Shown here: in pieces, positions 3,045 to 53,994 of the stretch | Layout: every line of letters starts with the position of its first letter | Position numbering within the stretch: position 1 is the stretch's first letter | IMG/VR virus record: IMGVR_UViG_3300008740_000006 | Location: 1-62,221 of that record | DNA from: a virus | Lineage: Duplodnaviria; Caudoviricetes | Direction: 5' to 3' (one strand) | Length of the DNA stretch: 62,221 nt | Notes under the pieces: generated by a model | Told to the model about the DNA's origin: nothing | What the model saw: the letters and a program-made list of their open reading frames with translations, nothing else | Database searches by the model: none | Translations under genes and position numbers: made by a program

Positions 3045-3048
3045 TTTC

Positions 3049-33273: not shown

Positions 33274-34290
33274 ATGGGTGGTGGTGGTGGTAGCAAGCAA
33301 GAGTCGAGTGCATCGAGCATGCCCCTGTGGGCTGAGCCCTATCACAAGGAGTTGCTTGGAAGGGCTGCTCAGTTTGCATACGGTCAACCCTACGAAGCAT
33401 ATTCGGGCCAGAGGATTTCCGATTTCTCACCAGAGGAAGAGGCTGCTTTTGGGGTAGGTCGAAATATGTACGAGACAGGTGATGAGTATGCCCGTCCCGC
33501 AGCATCAAGTGTTGGCAAGGGTGTGACCAGATTGGATCAGATGTCTCCGGCCCAGAGCGCTGGTGGATTCACGCCTCAATCCTACGACTTCTCAAAGTTT
33601 GATCCGAACGAGTATGCATCCCCGTATCAACAAGCAGTTACAGACATTGCGCTCAAGCGGGCGAGAGAGGATTTTGATAGGCAGGAAAGAGATCGCAGAT
33701 CTCAGTATTCTTCCTATGGAGCATCGGGCGGATACAACGAGAGACTGGATGACATTCTTGGTGGTCAGGGTCAGGCAATGACACTTGCTGATATCCAGGC
33801 CGCTGGTAGTCAGAGTGGTTGGGATGCCGGTGTGGACATTTGGAAGGGACAGCAACGCGCGGACATTGAAGCCGCAAAGATGGGCCAATTGGATCGCCAG
33901 CGTATGGCAGAATTGTCACTCCAGTCACAAGAGCAGAACCAAAGGAACTTGTTAAACGCGGCTCGTGGTTATTCCGGGTTGGCACAAACAACGGCTGGTC
34001 TTGGTAGGAGTGCCCAAGATTGGCAGCTTGCCATGCAGAGGAATCTTGGCGCTACGGGTGAAATGCAGAGAATGCAGGATCAAGCATATCTTGATCAGGC
34101 ATATGCTGATTACAGAGCGCAAACAGATTATCCCAAGACGCAGATGAATTGGTTGCAGGGGATTCTTTCTGGAGTCCCGGTGGGACCCGGCGCAATCACA
34201 AGCCCGGGACCGGATCGTATGTCGCAGGCAATTGGTACTGGTCTTGGTGCTGCTGCAATAGCTTCCGGTATAAATCAGGTGGGTGGATAG
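33274..34290 (+). CDS. Internal virion/ejection (pilot-like) protein
   Basis: MGGGGGS start, Q-rich coiled coil, SPYQQAV.D, C-terminal GLGAAA. Confidence 0.7.
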   Translation: MGGGGGSKQESSASSMPLWAEPYHKELLGRAAQFAYGQPYEAYSGQRISDFSPEEEAAFGVGRNMYETGDEYARPAASSVGKGVTRLDQMSPAQSAGGFTPQSYDFSKFDPNEYASPYQQAVTDIALKRAREDFDRQERDRRSQYSSYGASGGYNERLDDILGGQGQAMTLADIQAAGSQSGWDAGVDIWKGQQRADIEAAKMGQLDRQRMAELSLQSQEQNQRNLLNAARGYSGLAQTTAGLGRSAQDWQLAMQRNLGATGEMQRMQDQAYLDQAYADYRAQTDYPKTQMNWLQGILSGVPVGPGAITSPGPDRMSQAIGTGLGAAAIASGINQVGG

Positions 34291-34311: not shown

Positions 34312-36027
34312 ATGAAGAGAAACACCTTTGGTGCGAATGGGGCTGGTGGTCATTCATCAGCCCCTTCCTTTAGTAGCGTGATCGATATTGAGGATGAGTT
34401 GAAGGGTTGGGGTGACGACATGCTGCTTGAAGAGATGCAGCAACCCCGCTTTCCTCATATGCAATATCTGGTCTTCTCGGAGATCAATCGCAGGAAGGAA
34501 GATCGAGACAGGGTTAATAGAGAGAAGCAGGCTCAGGCCGCTCCCCAGGTTTCGATGGCAGAGGAGGTTGTGATGTCTGCCTCTGCTCCTCCCGGTGGCG
34601 CACCTCCGGGTGGAATCCCTATGCCGCCTCCCGAAGGAATGCCCCCCGGTATGCCTGTGGGTATGCCACCGGCTGGACCCCCCGCTCCCCAGCAGTTGCA
34701 AGGACCCGTTGGTATCGAGCAAGCATACCCGCCTGTCGAACGCCCTCTTCCCGGCACTATGGTTCAAGGAGCCAACAGGGGTGGTCTTGTTAAGGGATAC
34801 AATCAGAGCCAGAGGCTTCCGTACTATTGGGAGGTTGATGCTCAACGTAGGCGGGACAGGAGGGAAGAGGAGGCCAAGATTAGGGCTGGTCAGGAGTGGG
34901 AAGGTTTTCCAACTTGGTTGGGTGAAGTGCCCGGTAGAGTAGGTTCTTTCCTGGGGGATGCTTTTAGTGCGGTGGGAGAAGCCAAAGCGGCACGAGGTGC
35001 GGTACAGCGGGCCGCTGGTACTCATTTCATGCTTGGAACTCGTGCTGGGGAGGAGTTTGAGAAAAGTCTATTGGTTCCAGACTCCTCTTCGGAGGAAGTG
35101 CTTTCTACTCAAGATCCATCTTTAGTTGATGTATCGCTCACTTCACCAGTTGATGGATTATCCACGCAAGTTAATTCGTCACAAGATCCAGCCTTGAATG
35201 CGATTGTTGATGAGAGGGCCGCTCTGCTTGCCAAGGAAGAAGCTGCCCGGCGGGCCGAGGCTGAGCGCCGAGTTGCGGTGACGGGAAGAGTTCCGAGAAC
35301 CGAGGACCCTCTTGATGCTTACAGAAAGTCGTTGGGGGCTATTTCTGCGTATAGTGGTGACAAGGAGAGGGAGATCCTTGAAAGGAGAAGGTCCGAGCTT
35401 GAAGAGACTTTCGCTGGACCGAGTGATGCAGACAAGAGGCGAAACATTCTCCTTGCTCTTGCCGAGGGCTTCCTAGATCCCAGCGTCAATGAGGAGACAG
35501 GTGTAGCAGCGGGACTTGGTAAAGGTATTAGTAATGCAAGGAAGGTTATACGGAACAGGGAAGTTAGTGAAAACGAGAGAAAGAGGAATTTGGCAACAGC
35601 CCGCATTGCTCTTGATCAAATGGGTATCGAGGTGTTCAAGGAAGAAGATAAGTCTGCCAGAGATATTGCTCTCGCCAGGGCCAAGGGTGAACTTGAGATA
35701 GGTCTTGCTGGGCAGAAGCAAGCTTCTGCAAAGGCTATTCAGGATTCGATCAATACTGTTCACAAGGAAATTGCCGAGGGGCGTGCTGCTGGTTACATGA
35801 AGAGGGAGAGTCTGAAGGGTATTGATAAGGCAATTTTAGAGATTGAGGAGACTATTAGTACTAGATATTCTCTTATGAGCCCTGATCAAATGAGTGATCA
35901 TGAGCGCAAGATGAAGGAGAATTTGGAGCAACGATTGCAGGGTTTGTATCTTGCCAGAAAGCGGGTTTCGGGTGTAGATATGCGGATCAATCGCGACTTT
36001 GTTCCCAGGGCGAATCAAGGTGGTTGA
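34312..36027 (+). CDS. Internal virion/ejection protein
   Basis: YLVFSEINRRK, Pro/Gly-rich linker, coiled coil. Confidence 0.65.
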   Translation: MKRNTFGANGAGGHSSAPSFSSVIDIEDELKGWGDDMLLEEMQQPRFPHMQYLVFSEINRRKEDRDRVNREKQAQAAPQVSMAEEVVMSASAPPGGAPPGGIPMPPPEGMPPGMPVGMPPAGPPAPQQLQGPVGIEQAYPPVERPLPGTMVQGANRGGLVKGYNQSQRLPYYWEVDAQRRRDRREEEAKIRAGQEWEGFPTWLGEVPGRVGSFLGDAFSAVGEAKAARGAVQRAAGTHFMLGTRAGEEFEKSLLVPDSSSEEVLSTQDPSLVDVSLTSPVDGLSTQVNSSQDPALNAIVDERAALLAKEEAARRAEAERRVAVTGRVPRTEDPLDAYRKSLGAISAYSGDKEREILERRRSELEETFAGPSDADKRRNILLALAEGFLDPSVNEETGVAAGLGKGISNARKVIRNREVSENERKRNLATARIALDQMGIEVFKEEDKSARDIALARAKGELEIGLAGQKQASAKAIQDSINTVHKEIAEGRAAGYMKRESLKGIDKAILEIEETISTRYSLMSPDQMSDHERKMKENLEQRLQGLYLARKRVSGVDMRINRDFVPRANQGG

Positions 36028-39000
36028 TAAGAAGTATGGCTGGTAGGTACACATCTAGTGAACTAGAGGGGTTCCTTTCTAGCGCGACAGATTTGTACGG
36101 GAATCCACTGTCTAGTGGTTCTATCTCTGGTGCAAATCGCGAAGACCTCTTGAGGTATCTTGAAGAGGAGTCGCGCAAGCGGGGTATCAACCCGGCTCTT
36201 GCTGCTTCCATGATGGAGCAGGAGTCCAACTTCGATCCTTCGATTGCCTCTCGCGTGAATGAGGACAGGGAGGGTGAATACCGGGCCGCTGGCTTGTTCC
36301 AGCTTGCGCCAGAAACCGCACGCGAGCTTGGTGTCTCCAATCCCCTTGATGTTCGCGAGTCAATTCGCGGTGGTCTTACATACATAGACAGACTGTTGAC
36401 CAAGTATGGTGATGATCCAATTCTTGCCGTTGCAGCCTACAACGCTGGTCCCGGTGCTGTTGATAAGTATGGAGGTATTCCTCCTTATCAAGAGACTGAA
36501 GACTATGTGAGAAGAGTGACTGGTTCCTTTGAGGACAGTCAGGGCAACACTATCAATCGCTACGAAGAGAACATGCGGCGTTTCGGGGTTCCTCTCCCCG
36601 GAGAAGAGGAGGCTCCGGTTGATGAGGTTGCACGGGCAGAGCCCGTAGAGGAAGAGGCTGAAGATACTTACGAACTGATTCTTCCTGACGGAAGTTTCAT
36701 GAATGTTCCAATTGGAATAGACAAAGAGGAGGCAAGAGAGTCTGCGCGGGAGGCATATCCAATGGCTTTCCGTGGCGAAGTGTCAGAAGAAGAAGAGAGC
36801 AACATGCTCGACGCAGGTCTTTCTGCTCTTTATCGCTCGGTCTACGGAATTCCAATTGGTGCATCGTATGTGGGTGCCTTGTTCGGAGATGATCAGGAAG
36901 CTTTTGATCTGACCTCAGAGAGACTCCACGGTATATCCAAAACGGCTCATGGATTTGCTCCAGGGCTAACAACTCTCGATGATGTTTCAAGGGCATACGA
37001 AGATGAGGGCGTCCTTGATGCTGCGGCAAAGTTCATAGAATTCAGTGGCGAGAAGATTGGAGAGAGTCTCGGGTTCATGCTTCCAAGTATTGTTAGCGGT
37101 GCTGCACTTGGATGGCTTGGCGCACTGGCCGGAAGTGTCATTGCCCCTGGAGTCGGAACAGTTGTTGGTGGTCTTACAGGAAGGGCACTTGGTGCTGTTG
37201 TTGGCAGAACTATGGGGTTCCTTGGCACCCAGGTATTCAACTACCTGTCGATGAATATCGAGCGTGGTGTTGAGAACGGTCAAGTCAGTGTCGATGACTA
37301 CAATCTAATAAATCAGACAATGGCTGCTGGAACGCAAGCTGGACTCGATGGTCTTCTTGTGTTGATGGCGGGTGGCAAGGTTGCTCTCGGTGTTGGGACA
37401 GAGATTGCAACGACTGCAGGAAGGCAGGCGATTACTCGCGGCGGGGCACAGGGTCTTAGCAAGGGTGGGATTGAGGCTGTTAGGAATTCCTTTGCTCAAA
37501 CAATGGCAGGACTAGAAGCCCTTAGTCCTGTCAAAAGAATGGGTGCTGTGATGCTTGAGGAGAGCGTTGCAGAACTTGGACAGCAAGCAATCGAGCGTGG
37601 TGCTGCTGGTCTTGAGGTGAGCCCTGCCAGCAAGGAAGCAAGAGACGAATACCTAGAGGTACTTCTTTCTACAATTGGTCCGTCTTTTGCCTTTGGTGGA
37701 ATTGGTGGAGTAAGTGCGAAGTGGTCGCAGACCAAGCAGAAGAGGGCAGAAGAAGGTTTAGTAAAGTCATACGAGGACAGGGCTCTTGTTGTCAACAACC
37801 AAGTCAAGAGTGCCGAGGAAGCAGAGGCCAATGAGCTAGAGCGTGTTGCTGGGGAGGCGGCTGAGGCTGGTCGGATCCCCCTTGAGGCTTCCCTTCTTGC
37901 CGCTCCAACGGCAGCGGATATACACACGATAGCGAAGGACCGGAACATCAACTCAGAGGATGCTGGCTTCCATCAGTTCTCAAGAAGAACTGTCGGAAAG
38001 GAACATCTTGATGACATGAACGCGGCGGAACTCAAGCAGGTTTATGACAAGCTTGCTTCGATGCCGGTTCAAGATGCGCGCATCAGCTTCTCTGTTGCGA
38101 ACAACCAAGATGCCATCGACGTTGCGTCTCGCATTCGGTCCAACAGCAGTAAGAAGAGTGGAGCGATCCCTCTATCGGATACTGATTCGCAGATTAGAAC
38201 TGCGATCCAGCAGACCGGAAAGCTCAATTTCAAAAATGTTGACAAGAAGGTTGTCGATGAAACTGTTGCAGCATACAGGCGAGCAATGGTCAATCTTCGA
38301 TTGGTTGAAAAGAAGGATGGAAAGCTAAGGCTTGTTCGCACGAGGCCAACCACTTCCTCTGCGCTGACCGAAGTTGAATACGACAAGGTTGTTGATTTCA
38401 TTAACCTTGAGGGTCGCTTCCCCAACCCTGAAGAGTTCGGATCTATTACCGGAATCAGGAATGAGGAGTTCTACGAACTCGCCATTCAGGATGCTGTAAA
38501 TCGTAATGACATCAAGCTGGACAAGGATGGCTATGTCCCGGTAGAGCCAACGTCACAGAGGGAGGAGAGATTCTTCCTGCGTGTGAACGGTGTCACAGAG
38601 GACAAGTCATACAGAACTGAGGCTCAGGCGAATGAGGCTCGTGGAGAGCGGATCAGAAGCTTTGAGGAATCTGCCGCAGCGAGAACAAGGGAGGAGCTTG
38701 CCGCGCGTGGTCGAGGGATTCTTCCATCGAGACTTACTGCGCCAGCAGAAGAGCTTGCCCCCAGTGTCGAAGTTGTTTCTGCGGACACGCCACTTCTTTC
38801 CAGTCCGAAGGCTGATCTTGTTACCGAATACGAATATTCGGTGGAAGAGTCTCCGCAGTGGGTGGTCAGGGATGATACGGCTGGCTCTGAGCCTGTTGGA
38901 AATTACGACAACGAAGAGCAGGCAAGGAAGAAGGCGAAGCAACTCGGTGATCAGAAGAGTTGGGTTGTTCGTGACAGCAATGGTGTGGTTGTTAATACAT

Positions 39001-42000
39001 CTGGAAGCAGGGCTGAGTCAGATGCGTATATCAAGCAGCAGTCTGAGTTGGCTGGCGGTATCGCGAGGGATACATACAGAAACAGAAGGGAGGGAGAGGG
39101 TCCCTATCCGACCGGGAGGGAGAGGGTTTCGGGACCCGAACTTGGTGATCCCCGTCCGGGGATGCTCCCGCGCTTAAGGAAGGAAGCGACCTGGGAAGAG
39201 AGAGGTCTTACGCAGGAGGAAAAGAAGAAGGCTAGGGACAAGAGCAATGCGATTGCTCGCTCGATCCACAAGGGTTCAAGGATTGCTTACGAAAGGGCGA
39301 AGAACAAGAAGAGGCGAGAGCTTCTCGCTGGCCGCGAGGCTGTCCAGCGGAACTACACCTATGAAAGGGAGGATGGATTCGTTGTCAATGAGACAACAGT
39401 CACAGAGAGTGGTCGCAGGAGTAAGCCTGCAACTCGGGCCTTCTTCTCCGGCACTGATCCCTCAGAGGCAGAGACTCAGAGGCAGTCTTACGAGGCGTCG
39501 AGAGTCGGTGGTGAGTCCTTTGGTGGTGATCTAATTGAGGCGGGTGTCACTGCTGAAAATATAAGGCAGCTTCGCGATGACCCGAAGGGTTTTGCCGAGA
39601 GGCTAAAGCCGGATGGCACGAACGCTCCTCCCGCACAGGAAGAGTTGTTGGACAGGTTGGCGAAGGCGATTGAGAAGGAACTTGCCGGTCGAAACCTGCG
39701 TGGAATAGGTGTCAAGATTGTCAGGGGGATGAAGGGAGCGGAGGCTGGATTCAACAGTGTCACCCGTACTATCTCTCTTAGCCTTGATCCCGGGATGGAG
39801 AATCTAAGTGACAAGGAGATACTAGAAGAGCTTGGTCGAAGGACAGATCATGAACTAATTCATTCCCACAGGAAGTCTGGTTTGATTTCTCCAGGGGAAT
39901 GGAAGGTCTTCGTCAGGTACGCGAGAAAGGTTCCCATCAAGGCGAGTGTCTTGAAGCGGATCAATGATAGAAGGTTGGAGAATGGCCTTGATCCCAAGCC
40001 GGTGAGTACGACGTACTACGACTTGGCCCTTGATACCTATGGTGTGAAGGGAGAAGCTGAGGGCTGGTTCGATGATGACTACAACGAAGAAGCTGTGGCT
40101 TTCATGCGTCAGGATTTCGCAAATGATCCTGCGGCAATCACAGGTAAGCCTGCTGCTTTGTTCAGAAGAACTGCGAGCGTAATTGGGAAGCTCAGAAATG
40201 CACTGAACGGCGCTGGTTACAAATCAGATTCTGAAGTCTTTGAAGTTCTTTGGGGCAAGGAGATGGGTAACCGTCTTGCCGCTGACAAGATGTTGGATAT
40301 CTGGTGGCTCAAGAGACGTAATCAGCCTGAGTACAGAGATCTTGTCCAGTACATTGTACTGGCTCAAGAGGCTGGAGAGCTAGGTGCCGCAGAGAGAGCG
40401 GGTGCGTTGAACCAAGAGGGACTCGCTAGGCTTGAGTTGATTCGGTCAAGGATCGGTGATGCAGTTCTCGATCCGGTAGCTGAGTCCAAGCTGAGAAAGT
40501 ACACGGATCTCTTTGGCAAGAGGAAGAGGATTCCGGTTAGATACACAGATGCTCCCCCCGAAGAAGATGTTGAAGAGGGGGTCGTTGTCGAGGATCAGGG
40601 CACTGGTCGCGCTGCTCTTCGTCGGGAAGACCTTGTTCAAGATGATGGAGTTCAATCAAGGGCTAGGACTGGTGGCGAGTATGGACCCAACGGTGATTGG
40701 TATGCCGGTGGGCAGTGGATAGCTACAACTGAGCTTCCAAAGAGGGAGCGTTCAAAGATAGAGAGGTCTGCCTCAAAGAAAGAGCAGGTTGAGTTCTTTG
40801 AGGGGGGTGTCGAGATTGATCCTGGGAGGATTCCTATCGTTGCTCGTGGTGGTGGAACATGGCTTAAGCCAGATGGAAGATTGAATTATGATTTCATTGA
40901 AAGACAAGGATGGAGTGACCAGAAAATTGCTGAAGCAGAGAGTATGTCTGAGGCGTACCTTCGTGGTGAGCGTTTTGTTGGAGCAGTAGAGCATCCAATT
41001 TTGGCTAGTTTTCAGGATGCATCAAGAATGATTTTGGCAGGGATGAGTGTCCCTGGTGCAATGCTGGACAAATTTTCACCCGATGTTCGTGATAGACTTG
41101 AACGATTAGCTCCACAAGAACTTGGAGTTCCTATTACCGAAGGCACTGGTCGCGCTGCGTTGAGAAGAGATATAACACCAGAGATACAAGAGGCGGCTCG
41201 TCAGGAAACTAGCAGGGGTGCTGATGCTGTAGCGGACAGGATGGATGCGATCTTGCCGGAGGCTGAAAGGCTTACAGATGGTTCGTCTACTTACACTGCG
41301 GGGCAACCGGATGGTGTTCCCTGGACCGATCTTTCTCAGACAGAGTTGAACGAGCGAGGTGCTGGCATCAGAGATGTCGGAGAGCTTAGAGAAGCTCTCG
41401 TTGATATATGGCAGGAGACGCTGAATCGTGTGAGCATCGCAGCGAGGGATGCCGTAGAGGAAACGGGAGCATCGTTCAGTCTTCTTCCAGAAGAAGTGGA
41501 CGCTGCATTCCGCCTCCCCCTTAGCGCACAGCTTTGGTACGAGTTGGGTGGTGAGACGTTTGGACAAAATCTTCCACCCCTGGATAATCGCACTATGGGT
41601 CTTTTCTTTGATCTAATCGGTGCAACTTCTGCGCGGACTGAGCCAAGAGATAATATGTATCGTGCGATTTCGGTTCTTTCTCAGGTTCTAAGGGAAGTTC
41701 CAGTTGATGTAGATCTTGCTATGACTGGTCCCGTTGGGAAGGCTCTCTCTCGCGATGGTGTAGATGTAACTAATTTGGATGGAAACAAGACTGGTCAATT
41801 TAGTGGCACTCTCATGCTTACGTCTGGCATGCCAGTTCCTGTTCCATTCCCTGTAAATGATGTTTGGGTGGGTCGCATTTATGATGTAACAGAGAAGCAG
41901 CTTGCTGATAATCCCAGCTTGCATGAAGTGATGGCAGTTCACCAGACTCTTCTGACAAAGTGGATCAACGAGAACTCACCCCAAAAAATTCCTCACCAAC

Positions 42001-45000
42001 CCTGGCAGACACAGGCTAGAAACTGGGTTCAGTTGCGAACTTCCGATCAAGGTGTTGATACGTCTGGTTCACTTGAGAACATCAGGGGTAATGATTATCG
42101 GTCTGAGTGGGCCAATATGATTCAGCTTCTCAAGTCTGCTGGCGTGGGAGGTATTGATGGACAAAAACTTTCCATCGATGCACTCCTAGACCCCAAGTTG
42201 GTTGACGCACTTCGTCCAACTGTTCCCGTCTTCCGCAAAATTCCGAAGGCGACGGTCGAAGTAGGTACCTTGCTTACGGATACGGGTCGTTCAGCTAGGA
42301 TGCTGTTTGACTTAGCCCAGTCTGTTGGTGACAAGTTGTCGGAGAGGGAGTATCTGGCAACTCTTACAGGTCCGATGTCGGCTTCAGCGAAGGGCAAGCC
42401 AACCCCGTGGGAGGAGTTGGTCCGTGCGATTACTGGTCGCTCCGATAAATTGTCGCGGATTGTTAGTGCAAGAGTTAATGCACCATTCGCAGTAGCTGGA
42501 ACATATGAGGGTGCTGTTGCACCTAACTTGCGAATACCACTTGGTCAGATTCTGGGCGCAGGTGTAGTTCTTACCGATGAGCAGATTGAAATTTTCAATG
42601 CGATTGCTGGTGAGCATTTGTCGCAGGCAGCAATGGCGGCTAGCCATGTAAGGCTTTTGAATGATGGTGAAGCTGTTCCGGAGGGATCGACAAAGGGTTA
42701 CTCAGTTTTCCTGAATGGTGAGATCGAGATGACTGAAGATCTTCTAAGGTCTTTAGATCAAGCATTGCCAGAAGGACATTCTCTTAGTGGATATGAAGTT
42801 CCTGGTGGATATGTCTTAGATGTTAATCCACGCTGGGATGATGATGGTCCGCTGGGAATTTCTCAGGATGAAATAGACGCTGCAATTGTTTCTTCTGGAT
42901 TTGACAAGCTTGGCATTCCTGTTGGAGTTAAGAGACATGCCTATCGGAGTGTGTATACTGAGAATACTGATTACTCTGTAATCAAAGATCGGTTTACAAG
43001 GGGGATTTTTGAAGATGTCATCGAAGAACTACAAAGACTTGGAGTCGGAGAAGAGCAAGCTTCTGCCGCAGCCGTCGCAACGCGAGCAACAGGAGGCGAA
43101 ACAGGATTTGATTTACTCGGGAAAGTTTCGGCTGTCACCAGAGGCAGAGCGAAAACTGTCCTCAAGCGTTACGGGAGGCGCCTTCGTAATCTCGCCCACG
43201 CCGAGGGTGCGATCCAGGGAATCGCGAGAGACGTAGAGAAACGTCAGCAAGTTTATCTTGAGAAAGCTTCAAAGAGGTTAATCAAGGCAGGCCACCTAGA
43301 TGCTAGGCGTGTCCAAACGTCTTCTTTTCGTTCAGCAAGAGATGTTCGGTTGGGACTGCCTGCGCGCAGAACTATTTCAGATCAGCCAATTGATCCTGTT
43401 GCTTCCAAAACATCTGAAACTTTCCCTGGCACAGGTGAGGGGAGAGGTTTTCTCTCCCAACTTCCACCACATCTAAGAGACAAGACTACCGGTTACCCTC
43501 TATCCACTAAAGATACTGGTCGCTCTGCTGTTCGTCGTGGTGATGTTGGAGTGCCAGATTCCTTTAACCAAGTTTTGATTGTTCATGGTCCCTGGGCAGA
43601 AAGAATTCTTAGTGGTGAGAAGACCGTTGAGACTTCTGGTCAATCCCTTAAGGCTGATGGGGCTGCGCCCGGATGGGTTTTACTTCGTGATGACAGTGGT
43701 AGAGCCGATGGTGCTGCGAAGCTTGGTAAGCGAATACTCTACAATACTGAAGAAGAGTTCTTGGAAGACCAAGACAAACATTTGGTTACTAAGGGTGATG
43801 AGTTCTATTTTGGTAACCGTGTTCGTACATATGGATATCCAATTGAAGATGTTATTCGCTTTGATGAGTCGGTAGATATTCCTCCGCTTGGTAGGGATCA
43901 GAGAAGAATAAAGCCTCTCGGCAAGCCTATTGGTAACCCTCTCTCTACTGAAGGCACTGGTCGCGCTGCTGTTAGGCGTGAGCTAATTGGTATTACACCA
44001 GATGATGTTTCTGGAATATCCGATACGACATTCTTTCATGGTACTGATGCTACTGACTTGACCACTATCAGGTCTGGTAGCGAGGGTGGTTCTCTTGGAA
44101 ATGGTATTTATCTAACACCGTATGCTGAAAGGGCGACAGGCTGGGGGAGGAATGTTCTTCCTGCGAGAGTTGACATTAAGAATCCATTGGTTGTTGATAC
44201 ATCAACGGATGATTTTCGTAATCCGGCAGTAGATTTGCTTGTTCAGCTTGGTGTTAGTGAGGATGGTGCGTTTAATATTGTAGAGAAGGAGGAGGAGGAA
44301 TACGGGTATGTTAGGAACAAGATTAGATCGAGAGCAAGGTCGCAGGGCTATGATGGCATAGTTCAATTTGTGGATGGGAATCTTTCTGAGGTTGTTGCGT
44401 TTAACAAGAATCAGGTTTCTATCCAACCCGCTCCACTCGACACCGAAGGCATTGGTCGTGCTGCTGTTCGGCGTGAAGAGATGGGTATCCTTAGCCCGGA
44501 TCAGGCGAGGGCTCAGGCACGCACTGCCTCGTTTGATGAGTTAACAGGCAAGTGGTCTGACGGTGCATTCATTCCTGTTGGTGACTGGGAAAATTCTGAG
44601 TTCTTAGATCTCAGCAAGGGTCTTATTCCTAGTGCGAGAGAGATGAATGAGAAAGGTAAGAAGTTTGGTGATCGCGTTCAGAAGAATCGGGAGTTAGATG
44701 AGAACGGTGGTTGGACTGACAGGAACGGCAGGTACCGTAGGCTTTTGGATGGTACGAAGGCGAGGGTTCGGATAGACATACCCTTCTTTAATGAGACTGG
44801 TAAGTACGTTCAGTCCATTCACGGTGAGGGCTCCAGGCTTCCCGGAATTTCTGTTGGTTATGATTCGGTTGTACGGCTTCGTGGTCCGGTATCGTTTGAA
44901 TCTGATGAGGTAAGGGCGGGGGAGGTTCTGAATGAAGGAGAGTACAAGTCTCCGTTCGCAACAGTAGAGGGGGAGCTTACTCAGGATAGGTCTAGGCCCA

Positions 45001-48000
45001 AGGATATAGACAAATGGACTCCTGTTGGATTCGATCCTCACAAGGGAGTTTACTTCTACGACAAGAAGAACGGTCGTGAGGTTATCGGCGGAACGGATGC
45101 TTACTCAGTAGGCAATACGGTCTATGTCAGAGAGGTTGAGTACGGGAAGAGAAAGCTAAGAGCATCGACTCGCCCGCGTAGAAGTTTTGTTGGTCGTGCT
45201 GCTGTTCGGCGTGAAGAGTCACAGGATTCTGTCCGCAATCCCAGTGATAGAAGATCTCTGAGTATTCCCCCCTGGAAGGAGGCTGAGGCAAAGGAGAGGC
45301 GGCATGATGCTGGTGGCCTTTGGCCTTTCACTTGGGGCTTCATCAAGTTCAATGCTGAAGGTGAGTACAGGAAGGCAGGGAATGGTGTTCCCCTCTTAGT
45401 TCCCTACGGCTCGACTGCCAAGTATGGCGAGAGACACATTGAGTTGCCCAGGGTTCTTCCGAATGGAACCGAGAGGCCGAGTCATGATGAAGAGATTCGC
45501 AACAATACTCCCTACGAAAACTGGAAAGAGTTTATCCAGGGATTTGCAAGGTCTATGGGCCTGCAGCCCAGGGGGCTAAAGGGTGGTGACATTATTCCCC
45601 TTCATCAGCCATTTGATAACAAGATGGTTTTCTTCTGGGATGATGCCGAGTTCAAGAGTCCCGGTGTTGTTGTTATGGAGTACAGGAATGGAGAGGTTGT
45701 TGATGGCGTTGAACTCCCCGATCACTACTCACTGACTACTGCGTTTGTTTCAGAGAGATACGGTGAGAACATGCCTCCTCCCAGTAAGTTTACTGGTCCG
45801 CAGAGAGGCAAGGGTGTTAAGACCAAGTCGGTGATGGTGTTTGAAAACTATCGTCGCCCGGAGGTGGCGGAAGCTTGGTGGAAGACCCAGTCCTCAAAGG
45901 GCAGGTTCGCTGTTGATCGAAGTGCAGCTTACAGTTCAGTTGCTCAGAAGGATGCAGTAGGCAAGCTTGTTCCCCAGGGAGAGCCGAACGCAGATAGCCT
46001 GATCGGTCGCATGATAAAGGCAATCATGTGGCGACAGGAGTACGACATTCCTTGGATCGAAGAAGCGAGAATGCGCTACCTCGATAGGTACGAAAGGATT
46101 TTCACCCAGGGAGTTTCTGCCACAGAGAAGCGCATAGAGAAGATGAGGGCAGATGGAAAGCTTGGACTAACGGTCTACGAGATGGCATCCGTTTCTGCTC
46201 ACGCTATGGCGCTTCTGGTTGATCGGGTCGGATCTCTCACGGAGAACGCGATGCTCTTCGGCATCCCCGTATTCTCCAAGCTTGAGCTACCCGGTGGTCA
46301 CGCATCAGAGGGGTCTGTCTACATAGAAGAGACTGAGCTTGTTAGCGAGACTCGTTCGAACATCCCCGTTTACAATCCAGAGACAGGTTCGATTGAATAC
46401 GGAAAACATGTTGCTCCCAATCCTGATGCTTGGTCTGGAACTGGTGGTATCTGGAAGATACTTGGGACGATTGGTCGCCCTGATGAGAATCGGAGCGTGA
46501 AGACCTTTGCCTTTGGTCGTGCAGTTAGGGCGTACAACAAGCTCAAGTATGAGAATAAGCCGGTCCCGTTTGATGATGAGACAATTCGAGAGGGACTTCA
46601 GATTGGCTGGGAAGATCCAGAGATTGTTGTTGCATGGGAAAACATGCAGAACTGGAACAAGGGAGTGGTCAAGTTCCTTGTTGATACAGAGACAATAACG
46701 AAGGAAGAGGCTGCTGTTTGGGTGGAGCATGCTGACTATCTACCGTTCTATTTGAACCTAGACGGTGAGATGACAGAGGAGATGCAAAGGGTATTCAGGG
46801 ACAAGCTGAACAAGGATTCCTCGTATCGCTTCTTGGATAGTATCCTGCCTACTACTCCTTCCAAGAAGTACAGGGGATTCAGCCAGGGCGAGTTGGTTGA
46901 TCCCATTACTGCCTTGATGAGGAACACGAATGCTCTTTTGACTGCTGGTGTTCAGAACCTTGCAGCAAGAAGGGCTATCCGAGATCAAGAGATTCATGAA
47001 CAGGCTCGCAAGGTGGATGCTCCGACTGCGTCTACGGTGAGTGTTCGCGAGAAGGGCAAGGTGGTTCATTATGAGATTGATGATGAGCCGATGCTTCGCA
47101 CAATGATGGGATCCTTTGATGGTGTTGCCCCGGAAGTTCACGGGTTGATCAAGGCAGCTTCTATTCCAGCAAGAGTTCTCAGGGAGATGGTTACGAGGAT
47201 GCCCGATTTCATGTTTGGAAATACGGGTCGCGATTCAGTCTTTACTTACAATGTTCATGGCACAGACAAGAATCCAGTTAGTGCCTTGTACAGTTCCTAT
47301 TCAATGCTTTTTGAAAGACTGATCAATAGATACAAGGGGGCTAGGACTGGAGATCCAACAAAGGGATTCAGTGAGATCTATTCGATGATCAAGAGAACTG
47401 GAGGTGTTGGCGGTTACGAGATGAGAGATACGGACCTCAACAGTATCCAGCGTAAATTTATGCGTGGCATAAATCAGGAGAAGAATGTAGTAGCTGTGAT
47501 CGGAAAGATGTGGGATGCCCTTGGAGAGGCGAGCAACATTGCTGAGAACATTGCTCGCGAGAAGGTGTTTAGAGATTCCTATGAATCTGCCAAGGCAGAT
47601 TACATTACGATGGGTTTGTCCGAAAAGGATGCAGGCATCCAGGCAATGATGGAGGGTGGGCATCAGGCTGTTGAGGCTTTGAATTTCGGAAGGCACGGAA
47701 ATTCCGAGGGCTTGAAGCTCCTCACATCGGTTGTTCCGTTTACGAACTCACGCATTCAGGGACTAGATGTGTTTGCAAGGAGTGGTATAAGCGGCAGGAA
47801 TATCTTGCGAAAGGATTCGAAGGCTGCTCGCACTGCCCTGGTGAGGCGTGGTCTTTACATTGCTGGGATGAGCATGCTCTACGCGATGATGACCCACGAT
47901 GATGATGACTTTGAAAGACAACCTCTCCATGTAAAGGCTGACAATTGGCTGATCCCGTTGGGTCCGTTCGCTTCCAAGGATGTTAAGTTCCTTGCTATTC

Positions 48001-48785
48001 CGACTCCGTTTGAACCGGGTATTATTTTCAAGTGGTTGCCGGAAAACATTGTTCGTGTTGCAATGGGTCAGACCCTGGATGAATCATTGGACGCTGCGAT
48101 GCATTCCACATTCTCCACGCTGAACTTCAATCCGATACCCCAAGCTGTTAAGCCTATTGCAGAGGCGGCTTTCAACATAAACATGTTTACGATGCAACCG
48201 ATTGTTCCTTTCTATATGGAGGGCGTTAAGACTTCGGAGCAGTATCGAGACACAACTCCTGCTGTTGCGAGGCTTCTCGGCAAGGCGGAAGTGGTGAGTC
48301 CCCTCACTATCGAGAACACGCTTCGTGGTTACTTTGGTTCCGTTGCAACGTATGCATTCTTTGCATCGGACTGGATTCTCCACCGTCCAGCCTTTGGCTT
48401 CACTACAAAGCCAACATCTCTTATGAGTCAGAAGCCTTTCTTCAGAAGGTTCCTCAAGAGTGGGCTTGGTACGAAGGATGCTGATTCTTTCTACGAGGTC
48501 AGGGGCAAGATCAATGAGGTAGTTCAAACTGTTAACATCCTCAAAGAGAGAGATCCCGGCAGAGCCCTCAAGTATGAGATGGAGAATGCAAATGTCTTGG
48601 TCTTCAAGGACATGGTCCGAGATATTGATAAGTCCTTGAGCGAGCTTCGCTCGCAGGAAAGGATGATCAGGCGAAGTGGTATGTCTGATGACGAGATGAG
48701 AGACGCCCTATGGAACCTGAACAACATGCGCGCCTCGCTGATGAGTATGTCTCCAGCAATGCGTAGGCAGATTAACAGTTGGTAA
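36024..48785 (+). CDS. Giant polyvalent virion protein: SLT transglycosylase, zincin metallopeptidase, glycosylase-like, ASCH, ART-PolyVal-like, PBECR-like and LPD38-like domains
   Basis: ESNF...GLFQL...AAYNAGPGAV...ETEDYV; HELIH at 39849; PWAERILSGEKTVE; FHGT...GIYLT...GYDGI; GERHI...H...TTAF; NFGRHG...PFTNSRIQG...IPTPFE. Confidence 0.85.
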   Translation: MIRSMAGRYTSSELEGFLSSATDLYGNPLSSGSISGANREDLLRYLEEESRKRGINPALAASMMEQESNFDPSIASRVNEDREGEYRAAGLFQLAPETARELGVSNPLDVRESIRGGLTYIDRLLTKYGDDPILAVAAYNAGPGAVDKYGGIPPYQETEDYVRRVTGSFEDSQGNTINRYEENMRRFGVPLPGEEEAPVDEVARAEPVEEEAEDTYELILPDGSFMNVPIGIDKEEARESAREAYPMAFRGEVSEEEESNMLDAGLSALYRSVYGIPIGASYVGALFGDDQEAFDLTSERLHGISKTAHGFAPGLTTLDDVSRAYEDEGVLDAAAKFIEFSGEKIGESLGFMLPSIVSGAALGWLGALAGSVIAPGVGTVVGGLTGRALGAVVGRTMGFLGTQVFNYLSMNIERGVENGQVSVDDYNLINQTMAAGTQAGLDGLLVLMAGGKVALGVGTEIATTAGRQAITRGGAQGLSKGGIEAVRNSFAQTMAGLEALSPVKRMGAVMLEESVAELGQQAIERGAAGLEVSPASKEARDEYLEVLLSTIGPSFAFGGIGGVSAKWSQTKQKRAEEGLVKSYEDRALVVNNQVKSAEEAEANELERVAGEAAEAGRIPLEASLLAAPTAADIHTIAKDRNINSEDAGFHQFSRRTVGKEHLDDMNAAELKQVYDKLASMPVQDARISFSVANNQDAIDVASRIRSNSSKKSGAIPLSDTDSQIRTAIQQTGKLNFKNVDKKVVDETVAAYRRAMVNLRLVEKKDGKLRLVRTRPTTSSALTEVEYDKVVDFINLEGRFPNPEEFGSITGIRNEEFYELAIQDAVNRNDIKLDKDGYVPVEPTSQREERFFLRVNGVTEDKSYRTEAQANEARGERIRSFEESAAARTREELAARGRGILPSRLTAPAEELAPSVEVVSADTPLLSSPKADLVTEYEYSVEESPQWVVRDDTAGSEPVGNYDNEEQARKKAKQLGDQKSWVVRDSNGVVVNTSGSRAESDAYIKQQSELAGGIARDTYRNRREGEGPYPTGRERVSGPELGDPRPGMLPRLRKEATWEERGLTQEEKKKARDKSNAIARSIHKGSRIAYERAKNKKRRELLAGREAVQRNYTYEREDGFVVNETTVTESGRRSKPATRAFFSGTDPSEAETQRQSYEASRVGGESFGGDLIEAGVTAENIRQLRDDPKGFAERLKPDGTNAPPAQEELLDRLAKAIEKELAGRNLRGIGVKIVRGMKGAEAGFNSVTRTISLSLDPGMENLSDKEILEELGRRTDHELIHSHRKSGLISPGEWKVFVRYARKVPIKASVLKRINDRRLENGLDPKPVSTTYYDLALDTYGVKGEAEGWFDDDYNEEAVAFMRQDFANDPAAITGKPAALFRRTASVIGKLRNALNGAGYKSDSEVFEVLWGKEMGNRLAADKMLDIWWLKRRNQPEYRDLVQYIVLAQEAGELGAAERAGALNQEGLARLELIRSRIGDAVLDPVAESKLRKYTDLFGKRKRIPVRYTDAPPEEDVEEGVVVEDQGTGRAALRREDLVQDDGVQSRARTGGEYGPNGDWYAGGQWIATTELPKRERSKIERSASKKEQVEFFEGGVEIDPGRIPIVARGGGTWLKPDGRLNYDFIERQGWSDQKIAEAESMSEAYLRGERFVGAVEHPILASFQDASRMILAGMSVPGAMLDKFSPDVRDRLERLAPQELGVPITEGTGRAALRRDITPEIQEAARQETSRGADAVADRMDAILPEAERLTDGSSTYTAGQPDGVPWTDLSQTELNERGAGIRDVGELREALVDIWQETLNRVSIAARDAVEETGASFSLLPEEVDAAFRLPLSAQLWYELGGETFGQNLPPLDNRTMGLFFDLIGATSARTEPRDNMYRAISVLSQVLREVPVDVDLAMTGPVGKALSRDGVDVTNLDGNKTGQFSGTLMLTSGMPVPVPFPVNDVWVGRIYDVTEKQLADNPSLHEVMAVHQTLLTKWINENSPQKIPHQPWQTQARNWVQLRTSDQGVDTSGSLENIRGNDYRSEWANMIQLLKSAGVGGIDGQKLSIDALLDPKLVDALRPTVPVFRKIPKATVEVGTLLTDTGRSARMLFDLAQSVGDKLSEREYLATLTGPMSASAKGKPTPWEELVRAITGRSDKLSRIVSARVNAPFAVAGTYEGAVAPNLRIPLGQILGAGVVLTDEQIEIFNAIAGEHLSQAAMAASHVRLLNDGEAVPEGSTKGYSVFLNGEIEMTEDLLRSLDQALPEGHSLSGYEVPGGYVLDVNPRWDDDGPLGISQDEIDAAIVSSGFDKLGIPVGVKRHAYRSVYTENTDYSVIKDRFTRGIFEDVIEELQRLGVGEEQASAAAVATRATGGETGFDLLGKVSAVTRGRAKTVLKRYGRRLRNLAHAEGAIQGIARDVEKRQQVYLEKASKRLIKAGHLDARRVQTSSFRSARDVRLGLPARRTISDQPIDPVASKTSETFPGTGEGRGFLSQLPPHLRDKTTGYPLSTKDTGRSAVRRGDVGVPDSFNQVLIVHGPWAERILSGEKTVETSGQSLKADGAAPGWVLLRDDSGRADGAAKLGKRILYNTEEEFLEDQDKHLVTKGDEFYFGNRVRTYGYPIEDVIRFDESVDIPPLGRDQRRIKPLGKPIGNPLSTEGTGRAAVRRELIGITPDDVSGISDTTFFHGTDATDLTTIRSGSEGGSLGNGIYLTPYAERATGWGRNVLPARVDIKNPLVVDTSTDDFRNPAVDLLVQLGVSEDGAFNIVEKEEEEYGYVRNKIRSRARSQGYDGIVQFVDGNLSEVVAFNKNQVSIQPAPLDTEGIGRAAVRREEMGILSPDQARAQARTASFDELTGKWSDGAFIPVGDWENSEFLDLSKGLIPSAREMNEKGKKFGDRVQKNRELDENGGWTDRNGRYRRLLDGTKARVRIDIPFFNETGKYVQSIHGEGSRLPGISVGYDSVVRLRGPVSFESDEVRAGEVLNEGEYKSPFATVEGELTQDRSRPKDIDKWTPVGFDPHKGVYFYDKKNGREVIGGTDAYSVGNTVYVREVEYGKRKLRASTRPRRSFVGRAAVRREESQDSVRNPSDRRSLSIPPWKEAEAKERRHDAGGLWPFTWGFIKFNAEGEYRKAGNGVPLLVPYGSTAKYGERHIELPRVLPNGTERPSHDEEIRNNTPYENWKEFIQGFARSMGLQPRGLKGGDIIPLHQPFDNKMVFFWDDAEFKSPGVVVMEYRNGEVVDGVELPDHYSLTTAFVSERYGENMPPPSKFTGPQRGKGVKTKSVMVFENYRRPEVAEAWWKTQSSKGRFAVDRSAAYSSVAQKDAVGKLVPQGEPNADSLIGRMIKAIMWRQEYDIPWIEEARMRYLDRYERIFTQGVSATEKRIEKMRADGKLGLTVYEMASVSAHAMALLVDRVGSLTENAMLFGIPVFSKLELPGGHASEGSVYIEETELVSETRSNIPVYNPETGSIEYGKHVAPNPDAWSGTGGIWKILGTIGRPDENRSVKTFAFGRAVRAYNKLKYENKPVPFDDETIREGLQIGWEDPEIVVAWENMQNWNKGVVKFLVDTETITKEEAAVWVEHADYLPFYLNLDGEMTEEMQRVFRDKLNKDSSYRFLDSILPTTPSKKYRGFSQGELVDPITALMRNTNALLTAGVQNLAARRAIRDQEIHEQARKVDAPTASTVSVREKGKVVHYEIDDEPMLRTMMGSFDGVAPEVHGLIKAASIPARVLREMVTRMPDFMFGNTGRDSVFTYNVHGTDKNPVSALYSSYSMLFERLINRYKGARTGDPTKGFSEIYSMIKRTGGVGGYEMRDTDLNSIQRKFMRGINQEKNVVAVIGKMWDALGEASNIAENIAREKVFRDSYESAKADYITMGLSEKDAGIQAMMEGGHQAVEALNFGRHGNSEGLKLLTSVVPFTNSRIQGLDVFARSGISGRNILRKDSKAARTALVRRGLYIAGMSMLYAMMTHDDDDFERQPLHVKADNWLIPLGPFASKDVKFLAIPTPFEPGIIFKWLPENIVRVAMGQTLDESLDAAMHSTFSTLNFNPIPQAVKPIAEAAFNINMFTMQPIVPFYMEGVKTSEQYRDTTPAVARLLGKAEVVSPLTIENTLRGYFGSVATYAFFASDWILHRPAFGFTTKPTSLMSQKPFFRRFLKSGLGTKDADSFYEVRGKINEVVQTVNILKERDPGRALKYEMENANVLVFKDMVRDIDKSLSELRSQERMIRRSGMSDDEMRDALWNLNNMRASLMSMSPAMRRQINSW

Positions 48786-49258
48786 ACATCGAGCAGAGGC
48801 TGACGCCCCACTTCACGCTGGGCGAGATGATTCAAAGCTCAACCGCTGTTCGCCTTGGGATCAAGAACATCCCAGGCAACGAAGAGATTGAGGCGTTGAA
48901 GTTGGTTTGCGAAGAGATACTGGAGCCAGTTCGTATGAACTACGGGATTCCGTTCAGCCCATCATCTGGCTACCGAAGCGTGGCACTTAACTCTGCGGTT
49001 GGAAGTAGACCGAACAGTCAACACTGCCTGGGTCAAGCTGCCGACTTTGAGGTTCCGGGTATAAGCAATGTGGATGTGTTTGAATTTGTTTCAAAGAATC
49101 TTTGCTTTGATCAATTGATACTGGAGTACCACAGGATTGGTAATCCGAACTCCGGTTGGATTCATGCTTCTGTTGCTGGTGTAAGAACCTTTGTTGTTTC
49201 CGATTCGAATAGATCAGAAAGACTGGTCTATGATGGTTTGAGTTATTCGGAGTATTGA
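48779..49258 (+). CDS. Endolysin, peptidase M15A family
   Basis: HFTLGEM...LEPVR...SSGYRS..LN.AVG...SQHCLGQAAD...FDQLILE...WIH. Confidence 0.9.
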   Translation: MVNIEQRLTPHFTLGEMIQSSTAVRLGIKNIPGNEEIEALKLVCEEILEPVRMNYGIPFSPSSGYRSVALNSAVGSRPNSQHCLGQAADFEVPGISNVDVFEFVSKNLCFDQLILEYHRIGNPNSGWIHASVAGVRTFVVSDSNRSERLVYDGLSYSEY

Positions 49259-52931: not shown

Positions 52932-53639
52932 CTACGCCTGTGCATCAGGCAGTTGTTGAAGCTCTTTCTTTCTGTTTGAAAAAGCTTGCATCGTGATCTT
53001 GTGCGCCTCGGGATCTTCCTTCTCCATCTTCTTGATGACTTCCTTGTTGGATCGATACAGGTCCCTGAGTTCCTCAAGGTTCTTCGCACCGCTGGCGAAT
53101 ACATCCAGGGTCATTGCCACCTTGTTCTCCGGTACCTTCCCGTTCCCCTTTGGCCCATCCTTACCAGACTTCTTTGGAGACTTCTTCTTAGTTGTCTTGG
53201 TCGCACTAGACTTGGGCTTGGTTACTTCGGATGTCTCGGCGGGTACGTCATCGAAGTTCTTCTGGTACAGGTTGATGCCCAGTCCCCACATCGCACAAGT
53301 CTTAACCAGTGCGCGCTGCTTGCAGTCATTGATTGCTCGGGCATCGGGATTGATGATTGCGTTGTGCCGATAGTCCATGACTGGAAGATGACAAGATCGG
53401 GTGTGCAAGTTGATCTCAACGAAGCAATGAACCTCTGCGCTCCCGTCATTGAAGTAGTACACACCACCATTGTCATGATGGTGGTACCAGTAGCGAGCTT
53501 GTGGGTACTTGCTTTGCAACAAGATCCAAGCTGCACCCCATGCCAAGTAATCAAGTCCAGCCCTCGGCTCGACCCACTTTGAAACATCAACTGCTGTCAG
53601 TGTTTCCCAGATCTCTTTCGGTCCATGATCTTCAGACAT
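52932..53639 (-). CDS. Sak/Rad52-like single-strand annealing protein (DUF1071-like)
   Basis: LDYLAWGAAW...LPVMDYRHNAI...INDCKQRALVKTCAMWGLGINLY. Confidence 0.85.
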   Translation of the reverse strand: MSEDHGPKEIWETLTAVDVSKWVEPRAGLDYLAWGAAWILLQSKYPQARYWYHHHDNGGVYYFNDGSAEVHCFVEINLHTRSCHLPVMDYRHNAIINPDARAINDCKQRALVKTCAMWGLGINLYQKNFDDVPAETSEVTKPKSSATKTTKKKSPKKSGKDGPKGNGKVPENKVAMTLDVFASGAKNLEELRDLYRSNKEVIKKMEKEDPEAHKITMQAFSNRKKELQQLPDAQA

Positions 53640-53658: not shown

Positions 53659-53994
53659 CTAATGCTCGATCCAGTACCACGCTTTCGCTTTGTTGCCAGC
53701 GGCAGCCTTGTACGCTTCCTCGGCAGATTTGCTCACCTCCGAAAGCTCGTCACGCCAGATTTTCCTGCAGATGCCGTCGCGCGGCTTGAGCCTGGAGATC
53801 ACGAAAGTGATCTCGGGGTCTGTGACTCCCGGGACTGATCGGTGGTAGTCCTTGTGCCACTCTTCGGTCTCGTTGTAGATGCCTTCCGAGCAGCAAAAAA
53901 ACTCCCCTGACTTGTCTAGGTAGTTGCGGGTGTGGGGGTTCAGCGTGAGTTTGACTGCGACTATTCCATCTGCTCGCTTTCGATATGCCTTCAT
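53659..53994 (-). CDS. Hypothetical protein
   Basis: 111 aa, GGGAG SD, ATGA overlap. Confidence 0.65.
   Translation of the reverse strand: MKAYRKRADGIVAVKLTLNPHTRNYLDKSGEFFCCSEGIYNETEEWHKDYHRSVPGVTDPEITFVISRLKPRDGICRKIWRDELSEVSKSAEEAYKAAAGNKAKAWYWIEH

Follow-up and report, generated by a model that had tools for sequence, protein, structure and literature searches.

The stretch of viral DNA analysed here, referred to throughout as the window, is the whole of IMG/VR record IMGVR_UViG_3300008740_000006 (Caudoviricetes; 62,221 bp, 51% G+C), a virus record which looks complete. Within it a single plus-strand open reading frame (ORF), 36024-48785, opens with TTG and encodes a giant protein of 4253 amino acids (aa), roughly 460 kDa, designated P0001. 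Downstream of a zincin-like domain, this protein is punctuated by a repeated heptad, present as six GR[A/S]A[V/L]RR copies and one degenerate GRFAVDR. Six distinct relatives share with it the N-terminal region, a HEL[I/V/Y]H domain, the module here called M6 and the C-terminal region, at 28-38% identity, and their alignment with the window protein and with each other shows the heptad to be the junction between cassettes and the point at which cassettes are exchanged between related phages. These relatives are P0008 (3881 aa), P0089 (2626 aa), L005 (= L006, L009; 3372 aa), L007 (= L011; 2631 aa), L008 (2783 aa) and the 5'-truncated L010; P0007, a fragment identical to the window's protein, was left out throughout. 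The features of the giant protein are given below in nucleotide (nt) positions of the window, ART standing for ADP-ribosyltransferase and pLDDT for the predicted local distance difference test score of AlphaFold2 models.

36156-36485, + strand: SLT lytic transglycosylase domain (aa 45-154; Pfam PF01464, 72.8 bits against a cut-off of 21.3)
39504-40373, + strand: zincin-like (MPTase-like) domain, aa about 1161-1450, with HELIH at 39849-39863 (aa 1276) and a downstream EEA glutamate
40605-40625, + strand: linker 1, GRAALRR, the first junction after the zincin-like domain; position conserved in L005, L007, L008, L010 and P0008
40626-41147, + strand: cassette M1, 174 aa
41148-41168, + strand: linker 2, GRAALRR
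41169-43517, + strand: cassette M2, 783 aa, 43% identical to aa 968-1666 of another protein, P0002
43518-43538, + strand: linker 3, GRSAVRR
43539-43958, + strand: cassette M3, 140 aa, weakly ASCH-like; alignments of its homologues are confined to aa 2500-2640
43959-43979, + strand: linker 4, GRAAVRR, in a segment of pLDDT 35-49 just ahead of the confident ART fold
43980-44453, + strand: cassette M4, ART-PolyVal ADP-ribosyltransferase (PF18760, aa 2669-2798)
44454-44474, + strand: linker 5, GRAAVRR, within the 29-nt exact repeat 44452-44480
44475-45191, + strand: cassette M5, with a core (aa 2902-3044, nt 44727-45155) like Mycobacterium phage L5 gp82 (PF25735)
45192-45212, + strand: linker 6, GRAAVRR, within the 29-nt repeat 45190-45218; junction to the conserved chassis
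45213-45899, + strand: M6, conserved chassis module, contiguous with the C-terminal region in P0008, P0089, L005, L007, L008 and L010
45900-45920, + strand: linker 7, GRFAVDR, degenerate in the window, position conserved
45921-48782, + strand: conserved C-terminal region with LPD38 (aa 3960-4116, nt 47901-48371)

The original prediction, made from the letters of the window, had drawn attention to the recurrence of this motif, and the recurrence proves to be real. Heptads conforming to GR[AFS]A[VLA][RD]R begin at residues 1528, 1709, 2499, 2646, 2811, 3057 and 3293 (nt 40605, 41148, 43518, 43959, 44454, 45192 and 45900), the last being the degenerate copy; the positions first given for copies 1 to 5 lie two codons upstream, at the (G/D)(T/I) that precedes GR. 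Successive heptads begin 181, 790, 147, 165, 246 and 236 aa apart, in agreement with the interval lengths then put forward. Five copies of the strict form GRAA[VL]RR are observed, whereas shuffling the protein 2000 times gives 0.0 on average. Across all six frames of the window the pattern GR[AS]A[VLI]RR is matched six times, always inside the giant ORF, and the relaxed pattern GRx[A/S]xxR is not found in the 22 other ORFs of the structural module (8769 aa). The part that is invariant among the window copies is G-R-x-[A/S]-x-x-R. The motif had been written with a longer prefix, P(L/I)xTEG, and here only the heptad stands: the prefix is present in copies 2, 4 and 5 and partially in copy 3 (PLSTKD), neither copies 1 and 6 nor the relatives have it, and it was rejected as a part of the motif.

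Two more relaxed matches are seen in the giant ORF, AGRQAITR at 37419-37439 (aa 466) and AGREAVQR at 39330-39350 (aa 1103), the latter about 60 aa ahead of the zincin-like domain and not kept in the aligned relatives; these may be chance occurrences or extra sites. The hexapeptide DTGRSA of linker 3 recurs within cassette M2 (42279-42296, aa 2086-2091), where it is followed by RMLF and lacks the rest of the heptad.

Homologues of the variable part were collected through an exhaustive HMMER search with aa 2477-3319, which returned 908 proteins; the best 150 of these, with the set from an earlier search, were re-aligned to the whole protein, giving 172 domain hits in 153 proteins. The ART-PolyVal match of M4 scores 42.9 bits in the isolated cassette and 37.3 bits in the whole protein (cut-off 31.2), and that of M3 to Pfam ASCH falls under its cut-off (17.3 bits against 21.2; E=0.0079). 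For the M5 core, PF25735 is reached by the homologue P0134 at 34.5 bits (cut-off 27), the window copy itself giving only E=0.052. This core, with the pattern RIDIPxF...WTPVGFDPHK..YFYDK...GNTV(F/Y)V, is found in 115 of the 153 retrieved proteins, usually giant ones, and in many of them [F/Y]-[R/M/Q]-P junction motifs follow it. The match between M2 and P0002 starts right after linker 2 and, in P0002, ends just ahead of that protein's own QTLEQ motif; a search of viral contigs with M2 yielded no relative. M1 has no Pfam match at E up to 10, and none of the 153 other proteins aligns there.

It had been claimed that each interval holds one unrelated module. This holds for the first five intervals and fails for the last, occupied by M6 and closed by GRFAVDR, which is conserved chassis. 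The aligned counterpart of linker 6 is GRFSLRR in P0008 and GRKSLTR, GRQSLSR or GRQALSR in the other relatives; that of linker 7 is GRFSLNR in P0008 and GRRAASR in P0089, L005, L007, L008 and L010. On these alignments M6 and linker 7 belong to the constant chassis and not to the variable cassettes.

In the six relatives the junction core reads [G/S]Rx[A/S]xxR in 25 of 25 instances, with G (24) or S (1) at position 0, R at position 1, A or S at position 3 and R at position 6. The relaxed pattern is counted nine times in P0001, five times in P0008 and three times in P0089, against a background of 0.045 per 1000 aa in 151 other proteins, and the strict window motif occurs in none of the 153 others. 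The first heptad always follows the zincin-like domain in the relatives compared, and what lies between the heptads differs from protein to protein. L007 and L010 have one ART cassette each, P0089 has one 160-aa module, L008 has the same module together with a GNAT acetyltransferase, and L005 has about 900 aa that include a second HExxH; P0008 holds three or four cassettes and the window protein five.

The exchange is seen most directly in closely similar pairs. Between L007 and L008 identity is 92% as far as the final residue of motif 1 (residues 1283 and 1294, respectively); 167 and 308 unrelated residues follow, and 97.7% identity then resumes from the first residue of motif 2 (1451 and 1603). 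At the DNA level identity collapses and resumes at the same bases as these protein breakpoints. L007 and P0089 show the same pattern, and between L010 and L005 similarity is lost at 1168/1276 and returns at 1328/2192. Save for the GNAT cassette, an indel of about 143 aa placed three residues past motif 1, identity between L008 and P0089 is 99.7-99.9%; in L008 the GNAT cassette (aa 1298-1459) stands ahead of a degenerate motif-like PRFRLKS. That cassettes would be gained or lost exactly at the linker, as had been anticipated, is strongly supported in the relatives compared, with breakpoints on the motif in protein and DNA alike. The cassettes also recur on dissimilar chassis. From motif to motif, the ART cassettes of the window protein and L007 are 51% identical; for the GNAT cassettes of L008 and P0008 the figure is 78.5%, and M5 is the last cassette in the window protein and the first in P0008. 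Since the ART and GNAT cassettes are more alike than the chassis that carry them (28-38%), cassettes move between chassis.

In P0089 (aa 1282-1300) PRFRLKS, the aligned counterpart of GRFSLRR in P0008, comes nine residues after the first heptad, and the GNAT of L008 sits exactly between the two; the pair P0089 and L008 looks like an empty and a filled cassette slot. As a separate matter, the idea that the heptad is the target of the ART cassette, through arginine ADP-ribosylation, was considered and rejected; L008, P0089 and L005 keep the heptad and have no visible ART cassette.

Domain boundaries were expected to match the linkers and for the most part do so, both by homology and in AlphaFold2 models, some alignments that cross linkers being considered below. 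Alignment starts and ends cluster at aa 2500-2640 (M3), 2660-2800 (ART) and 2890-3050 (M5 core). The model of aa 2477-3319, with a mean pLDDT of 55 from an imperfect alignment, is confident for the ART fold (pLDDT 87-98) and for the latter half of M5 (78-89); linkers 3, 4 and 6 fall in the segments below 50 that flank them. Linker 5 is part of a helix (pLDDT about 60) directly after the ART fold, and no confident fold straddles any linker in this segment. The low confidence of the first half of M5 and of M6 is uninformative, because the alignment misplaces the N-terminal half of the M5 homologues.

Comparison of codons shows the heptad to be constrained at the protein level. The six window copies gave 105 codon pairs for comparison, with 36 synonymous and 13 non-synonymous differences, and copies 1 and 2 encode the same AALRR peptide with four different codons; this synonymous excess and the encoding of AALRR by differing codons indicate selection on the peptide. 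Conservation as DNA, which had also been reported, is confirmed: 44452-44480 and 45190-45218, over linkers 5 and 6, are identical along 29 nt, and the 17-mer GGCACTGGTCGCGCTGC is exact at 40599, 41142 and 43953 (copies 1, 2 and 4) and recurs with two mismatches at 44448, with 0.00 occurrences expected from 100 shuffles. Two further genes of the window bear on these identities:

52932-53639, - strand: Sak single-strand annealing protein (PF06378, E=3.4e-24)
53991-54980, - strand: PD-(D/E)XK nuclease, likely partner of the Sak annealing protein (PF12705, E=5.6e-9)

With linker identities of 17-29 nt, an annealing protein and a nuclease, it is plausible that the DNA encoding the heptad serves as a recombination handle. 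The original prediction had offered this role; as the sole role of the repeat it fails to explain a peptide conserved across synonymous change. Recombination in conserved flanks, combined with selection for intact junctions, would give the same picture.

The giant gene belongs to a plus-strand structural module with genes for a large terminase, a portal, a probable scaffold, a 306-aa capsid protein, two SU10-type adaptors, large tail proteins and a PHROG 'DNA ejection protein'. Its surroundings include the following:

33274-34290: gene for the PHROG 'DNA ejection protein', upstream of the giant ORF
48779-49258: endolysin gene, directly after the giant ORF

At the 5' end of the giant ORF (window 36024-36035) the first 4 nt from the TTG also form the end of the preceding ORF (34312-36027), and an ATG lies five codons downstream, for which reason the true start is uncertain. 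Elsewhere in the module, a GroES-like co-chaperonin gene (13629-14021, + strand; phrog_3188, E=1.4e-15) stands between the portal and scaffold-like genes, and a second lysozyme-like gene (9142-9732, + strand), matching endolysin, tail lysozyme and internal virion lysozyme PHROGs, adjoins the terminase.

The SLT, ART-PolyVal and LPD38 domains all exceed their Pfam cut-offs, the last as PF18857 with 97.7 bits against 27, in a region that also matches phrog_9854. Unrelated domains thus stand in one chain, M2 to M6 having separate homologue sets, and one of the domains, LPD38, is of the LPD kind. With the position of the gene between those of the ejection protein and the endolysin, the domain matches support the assignment, already made in the original prediction, of the 4253-aa ORF as a polyvalent virion or ejection protein in the sense of Iyer et al. 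2017 (PMC5512222). Protein searches place regions about 25% identical to its C-terminal region in cultured Vibrio, Bacillus, Escherichia, Pelagibacter and cyanobacterial phages; a DNA search of the cassette region against cultured phages gave no match. By gene position, and by analogy with gp47 of phage phi24B, the giant protein is probably held inside the capsid with the DNA. For gp47, the portions of the preprint drawn on here report presence in virions and absence from the cryo-electron microscopy map, and propose an ejection protein (bioRxiv 10.64898/2026.04.10.717836).

Processing of such a protein calls for a protease, and the nearest candidate is the HELIH domain. In the relatives its phmmer envelopes span 1161-1451, and in eight aligned homologues H127, E128, H131, E207 and A208 (alignment numbering) of the HExxH...EEA signature are invariant. 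The core of the AlphaFold2 domain model (pLDDT >90) has strands at 80-84, 93-95 and 100-104 and then helices; three strands followed by helices is the description of MPTases in the text of Iyer et al. (PMC5512222). Autoproteolytic release of domains by MPTase domains is proposed in that paper, the main text of which names no site. Elsewhere in the genome, PHROGs and Pfam profiles revealed no other protease family in 37 further ORFs, although absence by profile search is not proof. The capsid protein, at 306 aa, has no long N-terminal extension and matches only the capsid part of capsid-protease fusion PHROGs, and the ORF in the scaffold/protease position (14018-14965) gives only a weak scaffold lead, from the ESM Atlas. 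A short capsid protein with a scaffold-like ORF is compatible with a head that has no protease. As regards a prohead protease substrate, no gene for such a protease was found by profile search, and the 22 structural ORFs are devoid of the motif. What is found, as in polyproteins, is that a short consensus marks every point where one independently folding unit gives way to the next.

Repeated junction peptides are not confined to the window protein and its relatives. Among 104 proteins of at least 1000 aa, 23 contain a 5-mer in at least three spaced copies, as do 24 of 2080 shuffles; some of the 23 represent duplicated domains. Private repeats include QTLEQ (P0002), GKASR (P0003), RPET (P0004, P0102), MPEAP (P0097), MPSTA (P0104) and QPADE (P0042), and these too stand at domain edges. 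The ART homologue in P0003 starts at GKASR, the M5 homologue in P0004 ends 5 aa before RPET, RPET or MPEA stands at both ends of the modules that P0004 shares with P0102 and with P0097, and in 10 of 19 motif-positive proteins having M5 a motif copy lies no more than 28 aa after the end of that domain. HExxH was tallied in 21 hand-picked proteins, namely the 23 positives without P0044, P0085, P0102, P0153 and P0154, which have a low-complexity or duplicated-domain look, and with P0004, P0008 and P0089 added. It is present in 9 of 10 proteins with a non-cysteine private motif, as against 2 of 11 with Cys-rich linkers. No paper on repeated junction motifs in polyvalent proteins was found in the searchable literature, supplements apart, and the main text of Iyer et al. 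2017, supplements aside, neither contains the word 'linker' nor names a cleavage or junction motif (PMC5512222).

The Cys-rich linkers are of two related kinds: SRAFC(P/A)TGxGGGx(D/K)N(S/D)C, which runs on into a stretch rich in Gly and Ser, and (E)SRxxDCGRxxxGxFGxGNDCA. They occur three to six times per protein between modules, in P0021, P0029, P0035, P0039, P0048, P0051, P0061 and P0081 and also in P0014, P0022 and P0060; nine of these 11 proteins have no HExxH. They may constitute a second punctuation system, possibly self-cleaving or metal-binding. A literature search with their motif strings returned nothing relevant.

The explanation we favour takes P0001 as a packaged and ejected polyvalent protein made of a constant chassis and a variable middle. 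The chassis comprises the N-terminal SLT domain and hydrophobic region, the zincin-like HELIH domain, M6 and the C-terminal LPD38 region, and the middle a run of unrelated effector cassettes with the heptad G-R-x-[A/S]-x-x-R at every junction. The heptad would be recognised and cut by the zincin-like domain just upstream in the same polypeptide, either in the capsid or after ejection, so releasing the chassis and free effectors, these being the ASCH-like, ADP-ribosyltransferase and gp82-like modules and two further ones. With the site kept on both sides of a cassette, its 20-30 nt would supply short shared homologies that the phage's own annealing protein and nuclease could use to exchange cassettes. 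To this explanation as a whole we give an even chance of being correct. Cleavage of the heptad by the zincin-like domain in cis, suggested by the co-occurrence of motif and HExxH and by the failure to find another protease, is judged equally balanced between true and false; that the heptad is cleaved by some protease is likely, somewhat more so than cleavage in cis. The cis reading is the most economical, given that no other protease family is seen, the head looks protease-less and the HExxH...EEA domain is conserved.

Several observations weigh against this explanation. The HELIH domain has no Pfam MPTase match; the best Foldseek match in the PDB, a minigluzincin (selecase), is non-significant (E=0.9); a wide structural search (VIA) gave helical-hairpin matches only, with Z up to 5.4; and phmmer and profile searches of PDB sequences with the zincin region found nothing relevant. 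A word-indexed protein search with the same region returned nothing, and the ESM Atlas only clusters without names. With no significant match by fold search, the zincin fold is unconfirmed, though not excluded, and of the domain originally predicted to precede the array it is the HELIH sequence, at nt 39849, that stands; assignment as zincin-like is putative, drawn from motifs and predicted topology. In the model of the zincin domain plus linker 1 (mean pLDDT 56.7), the linker is disordered, at a pLDDT of about 30, and lies undocked from the active site. A complex prediction for the zincin core with a 40-aa linker-4 peptide scored 0.00, but was run without controls and counts neither way. The N4 virion RNA polymerase, which also has an MPTase domain, is packaged unprocessed, according to the text of Iyer et al. 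(PMC5512222). The association with HExxH is suggestive only, the list of proteins being hand-picked and the metagenomic proteins possibly fragments.

The same caution applies to the linkers themselves. Alignments crossing linkers 1 to 7 number 0, 1, 0, 2, 7, 10 and 3, most of them overrunning by 5-25 residues; P0066 and P0123 keep ART followed by M5, joined by a different sequence; and P0008 and P0089 align unbroken from just ahead of linker 6 to the C-terminus. Copies 5 and 6 have 9 of 9 codons in common (P about 2.7e-5 per pair, about 4e-4 for 15 pairs), and the first Arg is CGY in all six copies although AGR is commoner in the ORF, so that some copies share recent descent or gene conversion. 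The phage, finally, is known only from a metagenome record, which places cleavage beyond direct observation.

The alternative with most in its favour would make the heptad only a permissive flexible joint and a site of short-homology recombination, the protein working uncut as a beads-on-a-string multi-enzyme. Such a role is suited by breakpoints that fall exactly on the motif in DNA, by the 29-nt repeat of copies 5 and 6 and the 17 nt common to copies 1, 2 and 4, by the annealing protein and nuclease encoded in the genome, and by the precedent of the unprocessed N4 polymerase (PMC5512222). A DNA handle, however, needs no invariant spacing of G, R, [A/S] and R, yet this is kept in all 25 instances across chassis only 28-38% identical; AALRR in copies 1 and 2 is spelled with four different codons, within the overall ratio of 36 synonymous to 13 non-synonymous differences, and other clades hold different peptide motifs at homologous junctions. 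We regard this alternative as unlikely, though with an appreciable chance of being right. Arginine-rich peptides could also act without proteolysis, by binding DNA, the capsid interior or the ejection channel and so spacing or threading the modules during packaging and ejection. The two invariant arginines, often joined by a third, lie in predicted disordered segments, and the protein is probably inside the capsid, as is the LPD38 protein gp47 of phi24B, detected in virions by proteomics (bioRxiv 10.64898/2026.04.10.717836). Charge, on the other hand, is not a common property of the junction motifs, MPEAP, MPSTA, QPADE, QTLEQ and RPET not being basic, and the constant distances between G, R, [A/S] and R point to a specific pocket; the chances of this role are slim.

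It may alternatively be that the heptad is cut by another enzyme, either an unrecognised head-maturation protease or a host protease met after ejection. In T4, gp21 processes Alt and internal proteins at L/I-x-E. In SPN3US, the prohead protease gp245 is reported to act after A-X-E on proteins of the head and on ejection proteins, one of the latter having several such sites (PMC10052503). Several ORFs near the capsid gene of the window match no known family. Against it, none of the 37 other ORFs shows a protease family, the ORF in the scaffold/protease position is only weakly scaffold-like and the capsid protein has 306 aa; the relaxed motif, moreover, is in 0 of 22 structural ORFs, and motif and HEL[I/V/Y]H co-occur in all six relatives. 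Cutting by such an enzyme is rather improbable, a little less so than the recognition-only role. Chance or a compositional artefact has nothing in its favour and can be considered refuted, its probability being negligible: none of 2000 shuffles reproduces the motif, the 17-mer is expected 0.00 times, and six relatives conserve the motif against a background of 0.045 per 1000 aa. The original interpretation is in sum partly supported, in that the polyvalent protein and the swapping of cassettes at the linker hold good, the cassette claimed for the last interval does not, the recombination handle is plausible, and the protease site for the HELIH domain is putative.

More tentatively, and with rather less than an even likelihood, polyvalent proteins in general might be phage polyproteins, in which lineage-specific punctuation co-evolves with a zincin in cis, is cut to free the effectors and acts as a plug for cassette transfer by annealing-protein recombination between chassis about 30% identical, the Cys-rich linkers being a second system. 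The punctuation peptides might then be exemplified by GRx[A/S]xxR, [F/Y]-[R/M/Q]-P-x-x, QTLEQ and GKASR, a grouping which is similarly possible and similarly short of probable.

Polyproteins of the picornavirus 3C and flavivirus NS3 type have a cis-encoded protease and a repeated cleavage-site consensus. P0001 resembles them in its unrelated units, its protease-like domain within the chain and its short consensus per junction, and differs in belonging to a double-stranded DNA tailed phage and in bearing swappable accessory effectors rather than essential replication proteins; cleavage here is only predicted. Polymorphic toxins and MuF-type phage toxins have a constant delivery part and one exchangeable C-terminal tip, replaced by recombination. 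The combination of a constant part with exchangeable effectors is common to these and to the window protein, in which several cassettes instead lie in series in mid-chain, each bounded by the heptad.

The closest likeness in domain content is to the polyvalent proteins of Iyer et al. 2017 (PMC5512222), which in that account likewise combine SLT, zincin-like, ART-PolyVal and LPD38 in one chain and belong to the structural module; to these the present work adds the heptad at every junction, the layout of chassis and cassettes, and replacement exactly at the heptad. The substrates of SPN3US gp245 (PMC10052503) are, as described there, similarly packaged or ejected proteins with repeated short consensus sites, but for the window phage no prohead protease gene was found, the motif is missing from other head proteins, and the chemistry is of Gly and Arg rather than Glu at P1. 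Like P0001, phi24B gp47 (2811 aa; LPD5/LPD1/LPD38) is a giant LPD38 protein with a metallopeptidase domain, a likeness in domains; the available portions of its description report no junction motif or processing (bioRxiv 10.64898/2026.04.10.717836).

The class of polyvalent proteins was already known; the punctuation, its conservation with the chassis and the swapping of cassettes at the heptad are features for which no description was found in the searchable literature, supplements apart. Processing has been proposed since 2017 with no named site, so that the idea was hard to test; the heptad provides a concrete candidate site, which predicts fragments of 1527, 181, 790, 147, 165, 246, 236 and 961 aa and allows a simple reporter assay. 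In metagenomes, it also offers a rule by which these giant proteins can be divided into their cassettes. The exchange of cassettes between flanks that stay nearly identical shows how phages equip themselves with new anti-host enzymes, and the design of protein cargo for delivery by phages, in laboratory phage-host systems, could follow similar lines.

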